Part shown: positions 1 to 63,264 of the stretch, piece after piece | Numbering within the stretch: position 1 is the stretch's first letter | Layout: each line of letters opens with the position of its first letter | DNA from: a virus | Lineage: Duplodnaviria > Caudoviricetes | Strand: one strand, 5' to 3' | DNA: 63,264 nucleotides | IMG/VR virus record: IMGVR_UViG_3300036770_000545 | Location: 1-63,264 of that record | The notes under the pieces: model-generated | What the model saw: the letters and a program-made list of their open reading frames with translations, nothing else | Told to the model about the DNA's origin: nothing | Databases searched by the model: none | Translations under genes and position numbers: made by a program

Positions 1-127
1 AAGCAAGGGTGCCACCAGCGGTAATGATTTTGCCAGCGTGCGCTGCAACAGTGAGCGACGTATTGGCAGTGATGTTAACGACGTTGTCGGGGCCTTGCGT
101 GATAAAGCCGTTCAGCGACCGGACTGG
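1..127. repeat. Exact 127-bp terminal overlap with 62963-63089 (circular/assembly overlap)
   Basis: 1-127 is identical to 62963-63089; first mismatch at 128 (g) vs 63090 (c), after which the copies stay homologous but diverge. Confidence 0.95.
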
Positions 128-151
128 GCCCTGGAAAGTAGTTTGAGCCAT
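1..151 (-). CDS. 5' part of the virion protein following the major capsid gene (allele 1 of 62574-63113)
   Basis: ATG at 151 reads MAQTTFQGPVRSLNGF, same as 62574-63113; GAAAGG SD upstream. Confidence 0.85.
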   Translation of the reverse strand, partial: MAQTTFQGPVRSLNGFITQGPDNVVNITANTSLTVAAHAGKIITAGGTLA

Positions 152-160
152 TTTTGGCTT

Positions 161-237
161 CCTTTCGTGTAGTAGCACATTCCCGTACCGTCTCTACTAA
201 GTCTGCCAAGCCAGTCTGTACGGGCAAAAATCTTGGT
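161..237 (-). ncRNA. Structured RNA / 5' leader with double pseudoknot (allele 1)
   Basis: Three interleaved stems CCAAG/CUUGG, CCCGUAC/GUACGGG, UAGUAG/CUACUA; covaries with allele 2 at 63120-63197. Confidence 0.75.
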
Positions 238-1861: not shown

Positions 1862-2311
1862 TTAGTTACCTTTACCGAACGACGTAGTGGATTTTCTCTC
1901 ACGATAGAGAGGCATCCTCGGGTCGTTCTCTCTCATAAAGCTGTTGTCTACAGATTCAATCTGATCTCTGGTTACTTTGGCGTAATACTCTTTACGCTGT
2001 TCAACAAAGTCTTCAGGCATCTTGCAGAGCAATAATCCAGCAACTTCAATGTTGTCCTTAAAACGACTGTTCGGATCAACAAGAAGCTTAAACTGCGGCT
2101 GCTCCTCGATTCGTACCGGCTCCCAGCCTTCCCGCATCTTCGCAGACACGTTACGGGCATCGGCCTGACCCAGGGAGGAAACACGAATCCAGCGATACGC
2201 GTAGCCAGCTTGTTTGTCAGGTTGCGGTAGCGTCTCAGGGCGCTGCCAATGTTTAGGCCGTTCTTGTTGTGAACGGGACTCAAGTTCGCGTGCAAGTCGA
2301 TTTTCAGCCAT
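1862..2311 (-). CDS. Head-module protein of unknown function
   Basis: 149 aa, YRWIR...REGWEPV...GLLLCKMP; between scaffold and capsid genes. Confidence 0.7.
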   Translation of the reverse strand: MAENRLARELESRSQQERPKHWQRPETLPQPDKQAGYAYRWIRVSSLGQADARNVSAKMREGWEPVRIEEQPQFKLLVDPNSRFKDNIEVAGLLLCKMPEDFVEQRKEYYAKVTRDQIESVDNSFMRENDPRMPLYRERKSTTSFGKGN

Positions 2312-3254
2312 TTTGATTCTCCAGTCGTTGTTTTTCCTTAGCGTACTGCTCAGGGGTTAGCCCGAACTTCTTAGCGAGATTTACCTCGCTCTTTGTCAGC
2401 ACAATCTTTTTGGAGGATGTGCTACGAGACGCCGGTGCAACTACTGTGGCTGGCTTAGTCTCCGTGCGCTGAACAGGCTTGCCGCCCCCGTCAGTCGTTT
2501 CTTGTTCCCCAAAATACTCGGGGAACCTACGGCGCATCGTACTATCAATGCGCTGGTAATACTCGTCGCTTCTGGGATCTACCCCAGACTCAACCAATTT
2601 TTGGTGCAAACCCAGTGCCGCGCTGGTCATTTCTGAATCCGACCCAAACCACGAATTTCGCTCTTGCCACGAACTCGCCTTTGGATCAGGACGCGCAACA
2701 GGTGTTTGTTGTATTTCACTATTTACAGGAGTTTCTTCTTTTTGTAAAGGGGGCCGATATTCATTTATCCGCTGAACCCGATAGTTCGCCTCAGACAGCT
2801 TAGTCTGGGCTTCAATTATCTGGTCAGAATCCCCAGTTTCGTATGCTTCTTTATACTGCTTTTTAGCCATTTCTAGCTGTAACTGAGCAGCCGTTTTTGC
2901 GGTATCTATGAAGTTCTGTTGGCCTGAAGAAAGGCTTTCTTTAAGCTTTTTGTTCTCTTCATAGACTTTTCTAGCAAATTCCTCAGCAGCCTGACGCTCC
3001 CTAAAAGCAGACTCCTTGGCTCGGCGCTCGTCGTGCCAAACCTTTTTCATCTGTTTCAGGCGAGTCTTTACCTTTTCGGAGTACTCCTCAAGCTCATCCT
3101 GCTCAAGCTCTTGGACCAACTCTTGGGGCATAGGCTCCCGCTCTTTACCCGTTACCGGGTCTTTATCCTCTTCAGGAATATCGTCTTGGATTTCAAGCTC
3201 AATATCCTCAACTTCGTCCTGCTCAGGAATTTCCTTTCCATTTACTTCTGGCAT
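2304..3254 (-). CDS. Putative capsid scaffolding protein
   Basis: Acidic coiled-coil protein, C-terminal AKKFGLTPEQYAK helix; start chosen at ATG 3254 with GAGGAGG SD. Confidence 0.7.
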   Translation of the reverse strand: MPEVNGKEIPEQDEVEDIELEIQDDIPEEDKDPVTGKEREPMPQELVQELEQDELEEYSEKVKTRLKQMKKVWHDERRAKESAFRERQAAEEFARKVYEENKKLKESLSSGQQNFIDTAKTAAQLQLEMAKKQYKEAYETGDSDQIIEAQTKLSEANYRVQRINEYRPPLQKEETPVNSEIQQTPVARPDPKASSWQERNSWFGSDSEMTSAALGLHQKLVESGVDPRSDEYYQRIDSTMRRRFPEYFGEQETTDGGGKPVQRTETKPATVVAPASRSTSSKKIVLTKSEVNLAKKFGLTPEQYAKEKQRLENQNG

Positions 3255-3264
3255 TTTTACCTCC

Positions 3265-3672
3265 TCATGCGCGACTAATGCCTCGGGGGTCATCAACCAC
3301 CCCTTCAACAGAGTCATCGTTAATAATGCGGAACTCGCGTCCGTGGATCTTTACTCGGGTGCCAGCATGTGGGCGCACCAGAACAAAATCCCCTTGTTTA
3401 CACCATGGGCCACTTGGGAACCTAGCTGTATCTTTGTAGCAATCGGGGCCCATCTTGACCACAAACAGCACGGTCGTAAGAAGTTCCTCGTACTTTAATA
3501 CTGCGTCGGCCTTAAGGATTCCACTTTCGTAGGTACCTTCAATCTCAGGGATTGCGCACAGGATTCTGTATCCCGACGGGTCCGGCACTTGTTTTGCCTT
3601 TTCTTCTGCGGTTTCAGGCAATACCGTTGCTTCGTTTGGATCGTCTGTAGACCCAATAAGGATTTCACTCAT
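3265..3672 (-). CDS. GroES-like co-chaperonin
   Basis: PSGYRIL, ESGI, VVKMGPD, GDFVL, GTRVKIHGREFRIINDDSVEGVV pattern of the Cpn10 fold. Confidence 0.85.
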   Translation of the reverse strand: MSEILIGSTDDPNEATVLPETAEEKAKQVPDPSGYRILCAIPEIEGTYESGILKADAVLKYEELLTTVLFVVKMGPDCYKDTARFPSGPWCKQGDFVLVRPHAGTRVKIHGREFRIINDDSVEGVVDDPRGISRA

Positions 3673-3859: not shown

Positions 3860-6340
3860 CTACCCTTTCTGGTTGTTGCGAAGCTGCAAAAGTTGTTTAT
3901 CCATTTCGGCTTCGGTTCTTGCGTCAACTTCCATCGCCTTGATAATGGTCTTGACTTGTTCCTGCTTGAGTTTTTCGTCCTGGGCCATAGCCTTGGTCAT
4001 AATGTTTGCCTGCGCTTGACGGTTTTGTGAGTCAATGCGTTCTTTCTCTAAGGTCAGTTGTGCAGCCCGAAGTTCTGCATCGGTCTGGTCTTTCTGAGCC
4101 TTACGTTGCTGCTCTGCTGCTTTAATCTGAAGCTCCTGCATTTGCATCTGAATAATCGGATCTTGTGCCTGTTGCTGAGCTTGTTGCTGTGCAGCTTGGA
4201 TTTGATTTTGAGCCGTAACTTGTTGGGCTGCTTGAGCGACCAACCGGGAAACCGCCACTTCATAATCCTCTGGCATTTCCTCGTCGGGCTTGGGCAACGG
4301 AGCACCAAGTTTCTGCTCGACCATCTGGCGGTACTTAAACCCATAATGCTCGGCAATATGTGCTTGTAATGCTGAAAGCATTTGCTGGGCTGCTGGGTTT
4401 TGGCCAATCATTTGAGCTGTCATCGGATCATTCAAGAACGACATGTGCGTCATAATGTGCGCGTCTTGATCCTGATAAATAAACGCTTTTAAGGGTTTGC
4501 CCTTAAGAACATTCATATTCTCCGTAACTGGGTCTTTTGGCTTTTCGTCTTCCGGCAGGGGTACCAACTTATCAGCGTCCTTGATCCCCAGAACCTCCAG
4601 CATCTGGCGGTGCAGCACTGGCATGTTATAAATCAGCGGCGCTGTTTGGGCTAGCTGTAGTACTGCTTGATACTGGACCACCTTCTGCGACATAGTAGCC
4701 GCGTTAGGGTCGGATACCGGGATAACTTCGACGCTGTCGTAGTCGGATTGCTTAGCTCTTGGATGAGACGTGTCAGGCTCGTAGCTGTATTCGTCATCGG
4801 TGTAATCCCTAATAATATTCTTAAGGAGCTTAAACTCTTGCCGCATGGCATAGTGGATTCGAGCTTGAACCGCACTCATTACCTTGAGGGTTCTCTCAAG
4901 AATCGCCAGCGTTGTTCCAACGGGCGACTGGGCTGACATATCACTAACTTTGAGATCGGCTGCGCTAGCAAACCGGCGTCCTTCATCAACGATTGTTCCC
5001 AGCAAGCTGTACAACACCTGACTCGGCTCCTTGTACGGGAGCGTCATGATGTTGTCTTTGATCGTGCCGGAGGCTACGTCTACATCTCGGAACTCAGCCG
5101 GAGCGATTGGGGTGTCATCGCCTTTAACCCGTAGCCCCTTGGTTTTAAAGCCACCCGGTAAGTTGGATAGCGTGCCAGCATCCACAAGCTGACGAATAAT
5201 GCTAGTACCAGACTTAGCGAAAGCACCAATAAGATGAATAAGGCCAAGGGCATAGAAACCAAAACCCGGAACGTATGGGTAATGTACGAAGTGATTGCGC
5301 TTTTGTTTTGTCGGATCATCTGGGTGCCAATTCCTTCTGATGGCTAGGATCGTCTGCGACTGCTTTTCAATAGTGACAATGTAAGGAAGTGCGATACCTG
5401 TCTCATTGCCATCCTTGTCCTTGTCTTCATACCCTTGGAGGTCCAAGTCAACCTGCATCTCCAGAATCTTGAACCGATTGTCTGAAGTGGCTCGGAATCC
5501 CATCTTCTCTGCGATCTTTTTCTCCACCTCGTCGAGAGTGTCATGGGGCTCACCTAAATCAACGTCTCTATAAAAGCCAGCAACCTGAAGCTTCCTCAAG
5601 TCGTTAGGCGTCTTACGCATCACATGCGTAACCCGCTCAGCGGTCTCTAAGTTACTTGCGCCGTAGGGCACAACCACATCTTCAGCTGGCACATAGATAG
5701 ATACCTGCCGCTCAAGGCTGGGATCGTAGTACACCTTCTTAAACGCGTTACCAGCTAGCGCCAGACCCCAGAGCATCCGCTCATGCTCAGGCCGGTACTC
5801 GACCATCACCTCGGTCAACTGGTAATTCATGTCCTCTTTAACCCGAGCAGCAGCATCAATCTTCTCGGGAGTTTCTTTGCCGATGATCTGAGTCTTGACT
5901 GGACCTTGCGCCGGGAAGGTCTCCATGATTGTCTCTGCCTGGAACTTCACCACGGCTTCAGCTAACAGTGGGTGGTACACACCACATGCTCCGGGCCACG
6001 GCTCCGTGCGGTCCTCAAGCTTCAACCCAAGAAGGTCAAGGCCGTCAACGTATGTCTGCATCCAGTCTTTACGGGAGGAGATGTCCTCCTCGTATTCGCC
6101 AAGAAGATCAGTTGCCAAACCAACCAACTCATCCTCATCCATCTCTTCAGCGATGTTGGCGTTAAAGTCGCCCTCTTCTTCTCCGGGCTCGATCTCAATC
6201 TCCAAGCCGCCCATCTTAATGCTGACTTCTTCGGGATCTTCAATCTCAATCTCGATGACGGGCTCAGCCATTGCCGCCTCGTCCATCATTTCTTCAGTTA
6301 GACCAAGCGGTGCTTGGGAGAGTGATTTCTCAATTGCCAT
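3860..6340 (-). CDS. Portal protein
   Basis: 826 aa after terminase; GNAFKKVYYD, GFYALGL motifs, Gln-rich C-terminal barrel as in podoviral portals. Confidence 0.88.
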   Translation of the reverse strand: MAIEKSLSQAPLGLTEEMMDEAAMAEPVIEIEIEDPEEVSIKMGGLEIEIEPGEEEGDFNANIAEEMDEDELVGLATDLLGEYEEDISSRKDWMQTYVDGLDLLGLKLEDRTEPWPGACGVYHPLLAEAVVKFQAETIMETFPAQGPVKTQIIGKETPEKIDAAARVKEDMNYQLTEVMVEYRPEHERMLWGLALAGNAFKKVYYDPSLERQVSIYVPAEDVVVPYGASNLETAERVTHVMRKTPNDLRKLQVAGFYRDVDLGEPHDTLDEVEKKIAEKMGFRATSDNRFKILEMQVDLDLQGYEDKDKDGNETGIALPYIVTIEKQSQTILAIRRNWHPDDPTKQKRNHFVHYPYVPGFGFYALGLIHLIGAFAKSGTSIIRQLVDAGTLSNLPGGFKTKGLRVKGDDTPIAPAEFRDVDVASGTIKDNIMTLPYKEPSQVLYSLLGTIVDEGRRFASAADLKVSDMSAQSPVGTTLAILERTLKVMSAVQARIHYAMRQEFKLLKNIIRDYTDDEYSYEPDTSHPRAKQSDYDSVEVIPVSDPNAATMSQKVVQYQAVLQLAQTAPLIYNMPVLHRQMLEVLGIKDADKLVPLPEDEKPKDPVTENMNVLKGKPLKAFIYQDQDAHIMTHMSFLNDPMTAQMIGQNPAAQQMLSALQAHIAEHYGFKYRQMVEQKLGAPLPKPDEEMPEDYEVAVSRLVAQAAQQVTAQNQIQAAQQQAQQQAQDPIIQMQMQELQIKAAEQQRKAQKDQTDAELRAAQLTLEKERIDSQNRQAQANIMTKAMAQDEKLKQEQVKTIIKAMEVDARTEAEMDKQLLQLRNNQKG

Positions 6341-9930: not shown

Positions 9931-10273
9931 TTTTGGCTTTGTTAGCGTGTAATGTTAGCGTGCTAACATTTGTAAGTTGTTGATTTAGTTCAACAAAGTC
10001 AGAATGTTATAATGTTAGCGTGATTTTAGAGTATGGGTGAGAAAACGAGCCTCTCCGCAGATGCAGTTCAACGCACAGCCGCGAGACAAAAAAACCGACC
10101 CTCTCTCTCTTTCTCTAATAACATTATAACAATAGTCTACTTCTCCTCGCAAACCCGCATCACTGAGCCATTCACACTGTTAGAAACTTTTCTAACATCC
10201 ATCGCCATTTTTCTAACACCTAACATTGTTACCCCTGCGTTTTCCCTTCGGTCACGCCCTGCGACTAAAGTAC

Positions 10274-10302
10274 TTGACTTGTGTGGTACATTGTGATATA
10301 AT
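10274..10302 (+). promoter_or_regulatory. Early sigma70 promoter
   Basis: TTGACT-17 nt-TATAAT; spacer nearly identical to promoter at 12866. Confidence 0.85.
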
Positions 10303-12850: not shown

Positions 12851-12865
12851 GCGTGACCGAATCGC

Positions 12866-12894
12866 TTGACTTGTGTGGTACAATGTAGTATAAT
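12866..12894 (+). promoter_or_regulatory. Early sigma70 promoter for AAA/VWA operon
   Basis: TTGACT-17 nt-TATAAT. Confidence 0.85.
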
Positions 12895-52909: not shown

Positions 52910-54030
52910 TACGGTGCCTTAATGTCTAAAGCTAAAAGAAGACCGCGCCAAGTAGTACCACCATTAATGGTAAAAAAAGCAAGAATATCTGTTCCAGAAG
53001 ACGTCAGCGTTGGAGCGGTTCCACCAGCCCACGTAACTCCAGAAAAATAATTTACCGTATAAGCTCCCGCGTTAGTCAAAATTAAAACAAAAGCAGCAAC
53101 ATCCCCACTAGAAGCAACGTTTGAAACAGTAAATGTTGTTGTTCCAGAAATGGTTTTAGTGAAGTAGTTTCCGGCGGACAGATCAATATCTGACGCTGAT
53201 ACCGCAGTGCTTTTTTCCCTCAGCCCTGTGATCGTCGGAGTTGTACTAAAAACCGCCAGCCCAGATCCGGTCTCATCAGTGAGCGCTGCGGCAAGGTTGG
53301 CAGAGGAAGGAGTTCCAAGCCATGTTGCTACACCCGTACCAAAAGATGTAATCCCAGTACCACCATTAGCTACCGGAAGTGTCCCAGTAACATTTGTGGC
53401 GAGGTTAACAAAAGTGGTGGATGTGCTTCCAGTTCCTCCGTTAGCAATTGGGAGAGTACCAGTGACATTAGTGGCAAGGTCAACAAACGTAGTTGAGGTA
53501 CTGCCAGTACCGCCGTTAGCAATTGGAAGGGTTCCAGTAACGTTGGTCGCAAGATTGACAAACGTCGTAGATGTACTTCCAGTACCTCCGGATGTGACCG
53601 GAAGGGCTGTTCCCAAAGCTAAAGATGGGATGTAATCTACGGCTGTTACGACATCTGTACCGTTGTTGTAGACCAAAGTTGTCTTGCCAACCGGAATCGC
53701 TACACCCGTCTGTCCAGACACCTTGATCGTAACGACTTGGTCTGAGCCATTCTTGACGATGTAGTTCTTCTCAATGGCGGGAACTTCAAGAGTCGCTGCG
53801 CCACCAGGGGTTCCACTAAGGTTAAGGTACAGAGCCCGAGCATCCTGTGCTGCGTTGGTATCTGTGAGTGTCAGAGTGACCGTGGTGCTGGACATCGTAA
53901 CGTCCGCTTTGCCAACAATCGCCTGCTCAAGAGCGGTCCCGAGGTTGGTGTTGGTAGTAACGCCCCAAGTACCGGCCTGTTCGCCAGTCCCAATTAGCTC
54001 AATTTTTAAATCTGAATACGTACTTGCCAT
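52909..54030 (-). CDS. Tail fibre protein
   Basis: MASTYSDLKIELIGTGEQAGTWG..TNTN N-terminus, LPIANGGTG repeats, WAGGTAPTLT..GTDIL C-terminus. Confidence 0.85.
   Translation of the reverse strand: MASTYSDLKIELIGTGEQAGTWGVTTNTNLGTALEQAIVGKADVTMSSTTVTLTLTDTNAAQDARALYLNLSGTPGGAATLEVPAIEKNYIVKNGSDQVVTIKVSGQTGVAIPVGKTTLVYNNGTDVVTAVDYIPSLALGTALPVTSGGTGSTSTTFVNLATNVTGTLPIANGGTGSTSTTFVDLATNVTGTLPIANGGTGSTSTTFVNLATNVTGTLPVANGGTGITSFGTGVATWLGTPSSANLAAALTDETGSGLAVFSTTPTITGLREKSTAVSASDIDLSAGNYFTKTISGTTTFTVSNVASSGDVAAFVLILTNAGAYTVNYFSGVTWAGGTAPTLTSSGTDILAFFTINGGTTWRGLLLALDIKAP
53355..53604. repeat. 75-bp (25-aa) tandem repeats in tail fibre
   Basis: LP[VI]xxGGTGSTSTTFV[ND]LATNVTGT x3 plus a partial fourth; synonymously diverged DNA. 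Confidence 0.9.
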
Positions 54031-54041
54031 CTCAGGCTCCT

Positions 54042-55019
54042 TTATGCTGCTATAAGCTGCCAGTTGGGAGTTTGACTATCGCCAATATTAACCCAATTTG
54101 GGTTCTGACTGTCATCAATATCTGTCCAATTGGGATTCTTAACAATCGGTGTCCCACCGACCAAAACAAGTTGACTCGTTGCGGGAGTAATAACCCTTGT
54201 TTGCACCGGGCTTGGTGCTTGTGAAACTAAACTTAACGCCCCTGTTGTTGGTACTTTTACAAGCCCGCTTACCACTACGCTTGGAGCACTACCAACTAAT
54301 ACTGCCCCACCGGTTGGCGTTAAAACTTCACCTGTCGATGAAGTCGGGGCATAACCAACAACATCTATCGCACCTGTCGCGGGAAATATTGCTGAATCTA
54401 ATTCAGGAGCGTTTCCAACAACGTTTAAAGATCCAACATCCGGCGTTATTACTCGGCCATCTACTACTTCAGGCGCTGCTCCAGCAAGGATCAGATCCTG
54501 TGTTTGCGGCGTAAAAATAGCGCTTTGTTCTACTACCGGCAAATTTCCAGCTAGTGTTAAATCATTTGCTGCTGGAGTTACAAAAAAGTCTATTCTTACT
54601 TCTGAAACTTGACCGACTACACTAATTGCTCCTGAACTAACTGTTATGCCAGTTACAAGAACGCTTGGGACACCACCAATTACAGTTACGCCACCTGTCG
54701 GTATAGCACCGGAATCAATAGTTGGAGAATTGCCAACAAAAACAACATCATTAACCGCTGGGGTTACAAAAAAGTCTGTCCGTACTTCTGAAACTTGACC
54801 GACTATTCCTACTACTCCAACACCCGGAGTAATGTTTATGCCAGTTACGATTACGCTCGGCGCTGATCCAACTAATACTGCACCACCGCTAGGTACGGCA
54901 CCTGTATCAATGGTTGGGGCATTACCAGCAGCTAAAATAGCTCCGGTACCGGGTACAATTACTCCCTCTGATCCCCAGCCCCCTATACCATAGGGGACTA
55001 TTCCCCAGCCAAGGGCCAT
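54042..55019 (-). CDS. Val/Gly/Thr/Pro-rich repetitive virion protein
   Basis: Internal repeats PTGG.VLVGSAPSV and VGQVSEVR.DFFVTPA; Trp-containing repeats at both termini. Confidence 0.7.
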   Translation of the reverse strand: MALGWGIVPYGIGGWGSEGVIVPGTGAILAAGNAPTIDTGAVPSGGAVLVGSAPSVIVTGINITPGVGVVGIVGQVSEVRTDFFVTPAVNDVVFVGNSPTIDSGAIPTGGVTVIGGVPSVLVTGITVSSGAISVVGQVSEVRIDFFVTPAANDLTLAGNLPVVEQSAIFTPQTQDLILAGAAPEVVDGRVITPDVGSLNVVGNAPELDSAIFPATGAIDVVGYAPTSSTGEVLTPTGGAVLVGSAPSVVVSGLVKVPTTGALSLVSQAPSPVQTRVITPATSQLVLVGGTPIVKNPNWTDIDDSQNPNWVNIGDSQTPNWQLIAA

Positions 55020-62573: not shown

Positions 62574-63113
62574 TTACGAATCAGCAAACGGAGTAGCGGG
62601 GGATCCTGTGCAGTTCACAACGCCTTGAACCATGTACTTGGCGCTCGACAGAGCCGTGATCTGGACGTAAGACCCAGCCACACCACCCGTTGTACCACCG
62701 TTGAGGTTGATCGCATCGTTGGTAGCAGCAGGAGCAAAGCCAGCCATGGCACCAGAAGAGTCGGTGTCGATTGTCAAGATGGAACCCGTGAACTTGTCAG
62801 TACCGTCCGTCACAATCTTCAGGCTGCTCGTAGCAACCGTCGTGGGCACGAAGAACGTAAAGACAGCGCCTTGGTTGTTGGGGTTGTTGGGATCTTGACC
62901 GGGACCAGCCGAAGTGGGCGTAGCCGTGGTATTGATTGCGGGGAGAGTCAGAACCAAGTTGGAAGCAAGGGTGCCACCAGCGGTAATGATTTTGCCAGCG
63001 TGCGCTGCAACAGTGAGCGACGTATTGGCAGTGATGTTAACGACGTTGTCGGGGCCTTGCGTGATAAAGCCGTTCAGCGACCGGACTGGCCCCTGGAATG
63101 TGGTCTGCGCCAT
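62574..63113 (-). CDS. Virion protein following the major capsid gene
   Basis: MAQTTFQGPVRS.NGF, AHAGKII, TLPAI, NGGTTGG, ATPFADS; GAAAGG SD. Confidence 0.8.
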   Translation of the reverse strand: MAQTTFQGPVRSLNGFITQGPDNVVNITANTSLTVAAHAGKIITAGGTLASNLVLTLPAINTTATPTSAGPGQDPNNPNNQGAVFTFFVPTTVATSSLKIVTDGTDKFTGSILTIDTDSSGAMAGFAPAATNDAINLNGGTTGGVAGSYVQITALSSAKYMVQGVVNCTGSPATPFADS

Positions 63114-63119
63114 GGTAAA

Positions 63120-63197
63120 CCTTTCGTGTAGTAGCACATTCCTCGCACCGTCTCTACTAAGTCTGCCGAGCCAGTCGATGCGAGTAGAACTCTCGGA
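63120..63197 (-). ncRNA. Structured RNA / 5' leader with double pseudoknot (allele 2)
   Basis: Stems CCGAG/CUCGG, CUCGCAU/GUGCGAG, UAGUAG/CUACUA; TTGACA-17 nt-TAAAAA just upstream. Confidence 0.75.
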
Positions 63198-63264
63198 TCT
63201 GACACCTTTTTATCAGGTTGTTTGTGGGGTGTCAAGCTTTGCTCGGATTAACGCGAGATCATTT

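Follow-up and report, generated by a model that had tools for sequence, protein, structure and literature searches.

A double-pseudoknot leader RNA before a probable capsid-surface protein gene in phages, and its likely kinship with the Mu-gpT-DE RNA

The virus record IMGVR_UViG_3300036770_000545 (IMG/VR; Duplodnaviria, Caudoviricetes), which belongs to a lake phage, was analysed over its full length of 63,264 nucleotides (nt); this whole stretch is called the window below. Our subject is a knotted RNA encoded behind the major capsid protein gene, which we identify as the leader of the next gene, gene X. All genes near this element are on the minus strand. Read in that direction, the locus holds the portal gene (3860-6340), a scaffold-like gene (2304-3317), two small genes and then the gene of the 303-residue capsid protein (289-1200), with matches to Pfam Phage_capsid_4 (3.6e-15) and Mu-like_gpT (1.7e-11) and to PHROG 371 ‘major head protein’. 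The capsid gene has a strong intrinsic terminator, a 12-bp stem followed by a T run (254-281), located 15-20 nt upstream of the first helix (A) of the RNA. The RNA (copy 1, 161-239) extends from 3 nt before helix A through the Shine-Dalgarno (SD) sequence GAAAGG (166-161); it is followed by the first 151 bases of gene X (1-151, ATG at 151-149), which the contig start truncates. The other contig end carries, on the same strand, a complete gene X of 179 codons (62574-63113) preceded by a second version of the leader (copy 2, 63120-63199; SD at 63125-63120).

The two contig ends overlap: 1-127 is identical to 62963-63089, and the whole gene X fragment (1-151) is 97% identical to 62963-63113, which it duplicates; the 65 bases beyond copy 2, up to the contig end, are unrelated to the upstream flank of copy 1. 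An exact overlap of 127 bases followed by divergence is expected from an assembler that works with 127-mers and closes a circular or terminally redundant genome through a strain bubble. Thus, the contig closes on itself and then enters the branch of a second strain; the two copies are two strains’ versions of one locus rather than two loci of one genome, and the ‘two alleles’ that an earlier note on this DNA had placed at the ends of one contig are an assembly overlap of strain variants. The source database classes the record as linear and 100% complete. Two strain versions make a legitimate, if minimal, comparison. That the flank of copy 2 came from an endonuclease-bearing variant was only a guess; a blastn-short search with this flank (67 nt) against loci L001-L118 returned no match at E<=1e-3.

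On the minus strand, both copies read directly as three interleaved helices in the order A-B-A'-C-B'-C', exactly as the earlier note had proposed. In copy 1, helix A has 5 bp (CCAAG/CUUGG, 236-232/210-206), helix B has 7 bp (CCCGUAC/GUACGGG, 224-218/188-182) and helix C has 6 bp (UAGUAG/CUACUA, 199-194/175-170). Their counterparts in copy 2 are CCGAG/CUCGG (63196-63192/63170-63166), CUCGCAU/GUGCGAG (63184-63178/63148-63142) and, at 63159-63154/63134-63129, the same pairs of helix C. The compensatory changes claimed between the copies are present as described: one in A, two in B along with one change of C-G to U-G, and none in C. We add two hairpins of 3 bp each. Hairpin E (203-214; CUG 214-212 paired with CAG 205-203; in copy 2, 63174-63172/63165-63163) has a 6-nt loop, G plus CUUGG, that holds the 3' strand of A; hairpin D (167-178; GUG 178-176 paired with CAC 169-167; in copy 2, 63137-63135/63128-63126) has a 6-nt loop that is the 3' strand of C, and the SD starts at the next base. 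The complete order is A5'-B5'-[E5'-A3'-E3']-C5'-B3'-[D5'-C3'-D3']-SD: two hairpins with their entire loops captured by upstream strands, both tied together by helix B, which encloses hairpin E and the 5' strand of C.

Three conserved GAC triplets are located at the junctions of this fold. The two copies agree fully in the linkers GACUGG, CAGACU and AGACG; the flanks, described earlier as unrelated, are so upstream, while downstream they are homologous coding sequence. The SD had been placed 4 nt after C', and the actual gap is 3 nt (CAC). Folds of minimum free energy restricted to nested pairs gave no signal for either copy (z-scores of 0.03 and 0.44), an uninformative outcome because pseudoknots are not modelled. 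Some additional pairings were considered and dropped. Pairing of the A-B linker AUUUUUG of copy 1 with CAAAAAU before the AUG is missing in copy 2 and in relatives, and we attribute it to chance; an eighth pair of helix B (alignment columns 35/63: C-G in 70 sequences, U-G in 3, unpaired in 19) is unsupported, and a fourth pair of hairpin D (columns 75/100), unpaired in 23 sequences, is weak.

Relatives of the RNA were collected by a pattern search of viral contigs with the three linkers fixed and the stems left free. The leader is widespread: at least 118 contigs matched. Among the 74 unique matches, which include both copies from the window, 72 have a perfect 5-bp helix A and a perfect 6-bp helix C at consistent distances; the remaining two are locus L035, with A and a partial C, and locus L101, a chance match. 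The same pattern found 17 matches in 596 Gb of prokaryotic genomes, 2 with the stems and 15 chance matches without them; thus the pattern alone may occur by chance, the stems cannot. Both stem-bearing matches lie on contigs of metagenome-assembled genomes that resemble binned phage DNA, and no host can be named from them. A covariance model made from the relatives (R1) scored copy 1 at 97.5 bits (E 8.6e-22) and copy 2 at 86.5 bits; the next best score in the 63-kb window was 9.1.

A first MAFFT alignment (A1) misaligned the 5' strand of A, because the A-B linker ranges between 14 and 20 nt, and was replaced by two others. The gapless seed alignment A2 contains 25 sequences chosen for perfect A and C helices, so that these two are 100% paired by construction; helices B and D were not selected for. 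Standard pairs fill 99.6% of its cells as compared with 21.6-41.3% when the partner strands are slid, 14 of the 21 pairs change on both sides, and none of 500 shuffles attained the observed values. For the unselected helix B, 98.8% of cells are paired and all 7 pairs show double changes. Alignment A4 (94 matches, 92 of them distinct) was fitted to a model of A and C only, with B, D and E outside the model. Over all five helices, 96.7% of its cells hold standard pairs versus 19.2-44.6% with slid partners, and double-sided changes occur at 20 of 26 pairs. Double changes affect 4 of 5 pairs in helix A (96.5% of cells paired), 7 of 7 in helix B and 6 of 6 in helix C (99.8% of cells paired). The middle pair of hairpin D is U-A in 71 sequences, C-G in 11 and A-U in one; as the flanks GUG/CAC change jointly to GCG/CGC and GAG/CUC in relatives, C' is the 6-nt loop of this hairpin.

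The middle pair of hairpin E is U-A in 65, C-G in 25 and A-U in 2 of the 92 sequences, with no unpaired case. Since the first pattern had fixed bases of E, this hairpin was tested again with the pattern GACVGG..CNGACT and with U excluded at its middle base. Among 83 unique matches, 14 had perfect A and C stems, and in these the E pair was C-G (10) or A-U (4); an additional lineage with a perfect C and a bulged A gave 31 unique sequences, all C-G. Chance matches without stems showed every base combination. In A4, helices A, B and C contain 51 G-U cells (U-G and G-U counted together) that would be A-C mismatches on the opposite strand; the G-U pairs fit the minus strand only. The compact tertiary RNA proposed in the earlier note is strongly supported by this covariation, and we are close to certain that a structured RNA is real.

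The RNA belongs to X as its leader rather than to the capsid gene as its tail. An SD-like tetramer begins 0-3 nt after helix D in 84 of 89 relatives; in the other five, the SD is inside the fold. At locus L040, for example, the 3' strand of helix D is GGAG, and at L035 the 3' strand of helix C is the SD. The start codon follows D by 6-15 nt in the 89 relatives. An upstream open reading frame (ORF) longer than 200 codons was called at 66 class-I loci, to which a crude test for capsid genes was applied. The ORF failed the test at 25 of them, two of these ORFs being divergent capsid genes and one belonging to the chance match L101. At these loci the RNA directly precedes X, and it lies 32-58 nt after the stop of the upstream ORF at 24 of them (141 nt at the 25th, L101). 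The RNA stays before X when other genes are inserted upstream, which identifies the gene it belongs to.

Fifteen of these 25 loci share the N-terminal signature of the ORF at L012 (L012:11023-11745). This ORF, from the only locus of the 25 that was run against Pfam, matches GIY-YIG and NUMOD3; at L012, an inserted, free-standing gene of endonuclease type separates the capsid gene from the leader RNA. About 20 other class-I loci apparently carry such an insertion too, the genes ending 32-55 nt before helix A. The conserved DNA encoding the RNA may double as a target of such GIY-YIG/NUMOD3 endonucleases.

Helix D contains a GTG (176-178 and 63135-63137) in frame with X, which the ORF list gives as the start of a 187-codon ORF (62574-63137). 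In relatives this codon reads GCG or GAG and its spacing to X is out of frame in 25 of 84, so that it cannot be the real start of X; gene callers that choose it over-extend the protein. The codons for G-P-V of X (window 121-129) often read CCAGUC or CCAGUU and are complementary to the linker GACUGG. Of the class-I starts, 32 of 64 could form such a long-range pairing in full, as could 14 of the 82 Mu-type starts. This is suggestive; the pairing was not adopted because the two sets differ in composition and are non-independent, and half of class I is without it.

In RNA libraries from two studies, the motif and the first part of X occur joined on contigs. These come from four RNA runs kept as contigs, in which 0.05-0.09 of the sampled words were shared and which cannot give transcript starts, ends, strand or level; as DNA carry-over is possible, they support transcription weakly, and the low coverage of bin 241-320 carries no meaning. 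Of 90 unique upstream regions, 49 have a -10-like TGnTA element at a distance of 15-19 nt from helix A, and transcription probably starts just upstream of the motif.

No Pfam or PHROG family matched the product of gene X, which has thousands of metagenomic relatives. An AlphaFold2 model made with 40 sequences (predicted local distance difference test score, 83.4) has a disordered N-terminal arm. The only Foldseek match with E below 0.001 was the capsid spike of Pseudomonas phage Pa223 (9ny6_C, E 1.6e-5), with a modest template modelling score of 0.41. In Phage DSL-LC04, depositors labelled the gene in the same position ‘cement protein’; its counterpart in Planktothrix phage Pag-Yong1 was labelled ‘minor capsid protein’. 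X is thus a probable capsid-surface (spike or cement) protein, as judged from a structural model and from these labels. Its relatives keep the first dozen residues, M-x-x-T-T-F-x-G-P-V/I, as an N-terminal TTF.GPV arm; the remainder varies from ~150 to 200 residues and includes several unrelated-looking types. This resembles a conserved arm for attachment to the capsid, fitted with exchangeable outer domains. At five loci, the RNA precedes a protein with a different N-terminus.

Searches with Rfam 15 at gathering scores gave nothing in the window or in 20 related loci, and at E<=10 nothing relevant, RF03012 included, was found in 500 and 121 nt around the motif. Neither hammerhead, HDV-like, twister, twister-sister, pistol nor hatchet ribozymes were listed at this threshold, and the pseudoknot riboswitch classes (preQ1-II/III, SAM-II/V, fluoride, ZTP, guanidine-III) gave no covariance-model match. 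This agrees with the earlier note, which could not match the fold to the hammerhead, HDV, twister, pistol or ZTP consensus and had asked for an Infernal search of Rfam. Searchable literature on Mu-gpT-DE, on phage or capsid pseudoknots and on leaders has no description of the motif; it could stand unnamed in the supplementary tables of PMC10690425, a study in which 10,006 candidate RNAs were predicted within this collection of viruses. The RNA is missing from Rfam as such and undescribed in searchable literature. The earlier note had missed a kinship with Mu-gpT-DE, suggested by the same slot and the same core order.

Mu-gpT-DE (Rfam RF03012) is an orphan of 53 positions, typed ‘Gene; sRNA’ and credited to the 2017 survey of Weinberg et al. 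(PMC5737381), the main text of which does not mention it. We gathered RF03012 loci (L126-L245; model match at L387:2496-2548) by using the consensus ends from a weak match as a pattern and confirmed controls with the model; genuine members scored 72.3 bits (Roseobacter phage CRP-902) and 72.2 and 62.3 bits (two pattern loci). The genuine RF03012 RNAs lie between homologues of the capsid gene and of X, and the capsid proteins found with the two RNA types form one family. Mu-gpT-DE follows a terminator and a -10-like element and directly precedes a gene starting M-[AG]-x-T-T-F-S-G-P; in the window, the RNA likewise comes after a Mu gpT-like capsid gene and before an M-x-x-T-T-F-x-G-P gene. The outer helix of Mu-gpT-DE, CCUG/CAGG, overlaps the SD AGGAG with its 3' strand and encloses a 7-bp hairpin opening with CAG and closing with CUG, and the Rfam consensus includes AGGAG and extends as far as AUG. 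Pairing links a loop segment to the region of the start codon, CCC with AUGGG in 48 of 48 cases and GCC with AUGGC in 41 of 41, with one other among the 90 sequences. As this segment covaries with the second codon (89 of 90) and the model ends in AUG, Mu-gpT-DE, though typed as sRNA and named a downstream element, reads as a start-codon-pairing leader.

The window RNA and Mu-gpT-DE appear to have a common order of parts: the 5' strand of the closing helix, GA, a hairpin C-N-G...C-N'-G, AC, a strand pairing at the ribosome-binding site, GAC, and the 3' strand of the closing helix. Both contain three GAC junction triplets, and both occupy the same slot after a gpT-like capsid gene and terminator, directly before a homologous TTF-x-GP gene. 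Helix B of the window form might correspond to CCUG/CAGG, since it surrounds a hairpin (E) and the SD again marks the end of the fold; sequences and helix lengths differ, however, and the window form has two helices more. The inner hairpin has 3 bp in the window form versus 7 bp in Mu-gpT-DE, and in the former its loop adds pseudoknot A with the 5' end; the closing helix has 7 variable base pairs in one and the fixed CCUG/CAGG in the other; the downstream partner is the loop of the extra hairpin D, 5' of the SD, in the window form and the start codon in Mu-gpT-DE. This mapping is a reading by eye rather than a statistical alignment. Position and apparent core architecture make an elaborated, hitherto unrecognised form of Mu-gpT-DE the best classification for the window RNA.

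The two leader types replace each other among related phages. From 149 upstream ORFs and the window sequence, we dropped proteins outside 285-320 residues, those not starting with MA and duplicates, which left 100 capsid proteins for a maximum-likelihood tree, 32 with the window form (window included) and 68 with Mu-gpT-DE. At least 5 switches of leader type are needed on this tree, 4 of them forced by branches with support of at least 95 in the Shimodaira-Hasegawa-like approximate likelihood-ratio test (SH-aLRT); shuffled labels need 27.3 switches on average. Leader type is thus clustered but not monophyletic. Cultured carriers, found via the capsid protein, can be named for each form: the window form at 79 bits in Phage DSL-LC04, a divergent version at 31.5 bits behind a TGTATAAT element in Pelagibacter phage HTVC023P, and RF03012 in CRP-902 with the score given above. 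Neither model matches the leaders of Pelagibacter phage HTVC027P (L384:2960-3055) and Pag-Yong1 (L383:2404-2510). By eye, both appear to form a helix plus pseudoknot, with one strand paired to the SD (CCUAG with CUAGGAG; CCGUCUCC with GGAGACGG), and they may be further shapes of the same device. What appears constant is a knotted leader touching the ribosome-binding site of X, with the exact shape varying.

We propose, with a probability of about 0.6, that the RNA is a translational operator for X. It would act in cis as a 5' leader of ~70 nt in the X messenger. In its fold, a core closed by helix B holds hairpin E together with the 5' strand of C. The 5'-terminal strand captures the 6-nt loop of E to make helix A, the loop of D (6 nt) is captured by the 5' strand of C, and the last base of the fold immediately precedes the SD. 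Such a knot beside the ribosome-binding site, or in variants atop it, could limit or gate binding of the 30S subunit and thereby determine how much surface protein is made in proportion to capsid protein. From the SD spacing, together with the pairing of the ribosome-binding site or start codon in variants and in Mu-gpT-DE, we infer control of translation initiation. That the junction bases do not vary hints at a specific tertiary core or at a surface that is recognised, which makes a factor acting in trans, protein or small ligand, plausible. Unassembled X or capsid protein might play this role, as in the T4 gene 32 or the S4 alpha-operon leader; autogenous control by an unassembled structural protein reportedly has a phage precedent in the scaffolding protein of P22. 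Among the functions listed in the earlier note (translational control, ribozyme, nuclease block, packaging RNA), translational control has gained evidence, from the SD 0-3 nt after D in 84 of 89 relatives and the paired SD or start codon of variants and Mu-gpT-DE; ribozyme and packaging RNA are left without support, and a nuclease block is a less likely alternative.

Several observations weigh against this proposal. In the common form, including that of the window, the SD and AUG are themselves unpaired, so that simple occlusion is unsupported, and no alternative fold masking the SD was found. The sigma70-like promoter reported earlier upstream of both alleles is not borne out, as a sigma-70 consensus scan of the minus strand calls none at either copy; by eye, copy 2 has TTGACA-17-TAAAAA, in which position 6 is not the expected T, and no more than 8 of 12 positions match in copy 1. 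With TGnTA in 49 of 90 regions only, the 5' end of the transcript can be placed only tentatively, and the RNA-library data are assembled contigs. Kinship with Mu-gpT-DE is taken from position and from an architecture read by eye, while the RF03012 model leaves the RNA unscored: its best values over the whole record, 8.9 and 8.4 bits, are located elsewhere than the motif and miss the gathering threshold of 49 bits. The model likewise gave no match at the motifs of five variant loci. Further, most sequences were retrieved with patterns that fix the linkers, making linker invariance partly a matter of construction. In two phages found via the capsid protein, ‘invariant’ linkers deviate: DSL-LC04 has UACUGA and AGAAG in place of two of them, and HTVC023P has GACUGA.

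Other roles would also fit parts of the evidence. The knot could stabilise the 5' end of the X messenger, guarding it from 5'-end-dependent attack by RNase E or RNase J or stopping an exonuclease in the manner of exonuclease-resistant RNAs (xrRNA). Knotted folds are mechanically resistant, and at ~15-20 nt after the capsid terminator and a few nucleotides after TGnTA (49 of 90) the motif may be 5'-terminal. Simple hairpins would suffice for such protection, however; the invariant junction bases and the fixed distance to the SD would be superfluous, and variants and Mu-gpT-DE pair the SD or AUG itself, which points to translation. On balance we consider a stabiliser unlikely. A riboswitch that couples synthesis of the surface protein to host state through a small molecule or ion is a rather improbable alternative. 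The unpaired, conserved junction bases (three GAC) between covarying helices are what one expects of a ligand pocket, and the fold adjoins the ribosome-binding site. Yet neither an expression platform nor an alternative fold was found, no Rfam riboswitch matched, a virion structural gene would be an unusual target, and it would be odd for a single pocket that several differently shaped knots fill the same slot.

The remaining explanations have much less in their favour. The position of the motif, which closely follows a terminator and a likely start site, would suit a processive antitermination RNA of the put type of HK022, ensuring readthrough of late-operon terminators; this would leave the fixed SD spacing and the pairing of the ribosome-binding site in variants unexplained, and to our knowledge the two-hairpin put RNAs bear no resemblance to the motif, so that we regard this role as very unlikely. 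The case for a self-cleaving ribozyme processing the late transcript is slender: a double pseudoknot with invariant junction bases is typical of small ribozymes, but no Rfam ribozyme matched at E<=10 (121 and 500 nt), any hairpin between B 5' and A 3' is too short for a P3 of the hepatitis delta virus (HDV) type, and RNA-library contigs run through the motif into X. A DNA-level element, either a homing-endonuclease target or a packaging signal, might mimic RNA structure, and genes of GIY-YIG type, the enzymes of which target conserved DNA, adjoin the motif in many loci; compensatory changes in five helices and strand-specific G-U pairs are unexplained by protein-binding DNA, which makes this hardly credible.

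A translational operator of this kind has known counterparts. The leader of T4 gene 32 mRNA contains a pseudoknot for autogenous translational repression (PMC10690425, PMC3014915, PMC535899) and shares with the window RNA the use of a pseudoknot in a phage mRNA 5' leader to control translation of its own gene. There is no similarity in sequence or fold, and gp32 binds nucleic acid while X is a capsid-surface candidate without known RNA binding; the gene 32 knot is also said to lie well upstream of the ribosome-binding site. The leader of the E. coli alpha operon, controlled by S4 (Rfam Alpha_RBS), is, according to reported work of the Draper laboratory, a nested double pseudoknot that traps the 30S subunit. 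Its likeness lies in a double pseudoknot abutting or including the ribosome-binding site and serving as a protein-responsive translational operator; helix order and host context differ, and the window leader is without an Rfam match. The riboswitches preQ1-II and SAM-II are pseudoknots that sequester the SD. They too are small knots at the ribosome-binding site with conserved unpaired bases; in the window form, the SD is adjacent to the knot and unpaired, and there is neither an Rfam match nor a known ligand.

Mu-gpT-DE, which has had orphan status since 2017 and is listed among small RNAs as lying downstream of the capsid gene, becomes a testable translational operator in the light of these data. 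Both forms are 5' leaders of the next gene that touch or bury its ribosome-binding site and replace each other among close relatives, and the current RF03012 model misses the whole branch of the window form. The cultured carriers DSL-LC04, HTVC023P (divergent) and CRP-902 (RF03012) are available for work on each. With two full-loop pseudoknots in 70 nt, the RNA is an attractive target for structure determination. One could speculate further that the leader is a protein- or ligand-responsive sensor, in which the GAC core forms a new kind of pocket and gates synthesis of the surface protein, with Mu-gpT-DE as a simpler member of the same superfamily; we hold this extension as doubtful. Were it true, it would concern a globally abundant lineage of lake and ocean phages, cultured pelagiphages included, and would give the orphan Mu-gpT-DE its first function.

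Elsewhere in the window, two 30-nt repeats with 90% identity (10273-10302 and 12865-12894) lie 2.6 kb apart in the early region and resemble strong promoters (CTTGAC...GATATAAT / AGTATAAT). Three tandem 75-nt repeats with 75% identity are located within a coding region at 53345-53569, and further repeats of 49 and 91 nt follow nearby at 54269-54893; these repeats suggest a repetitive fibre-like protein.

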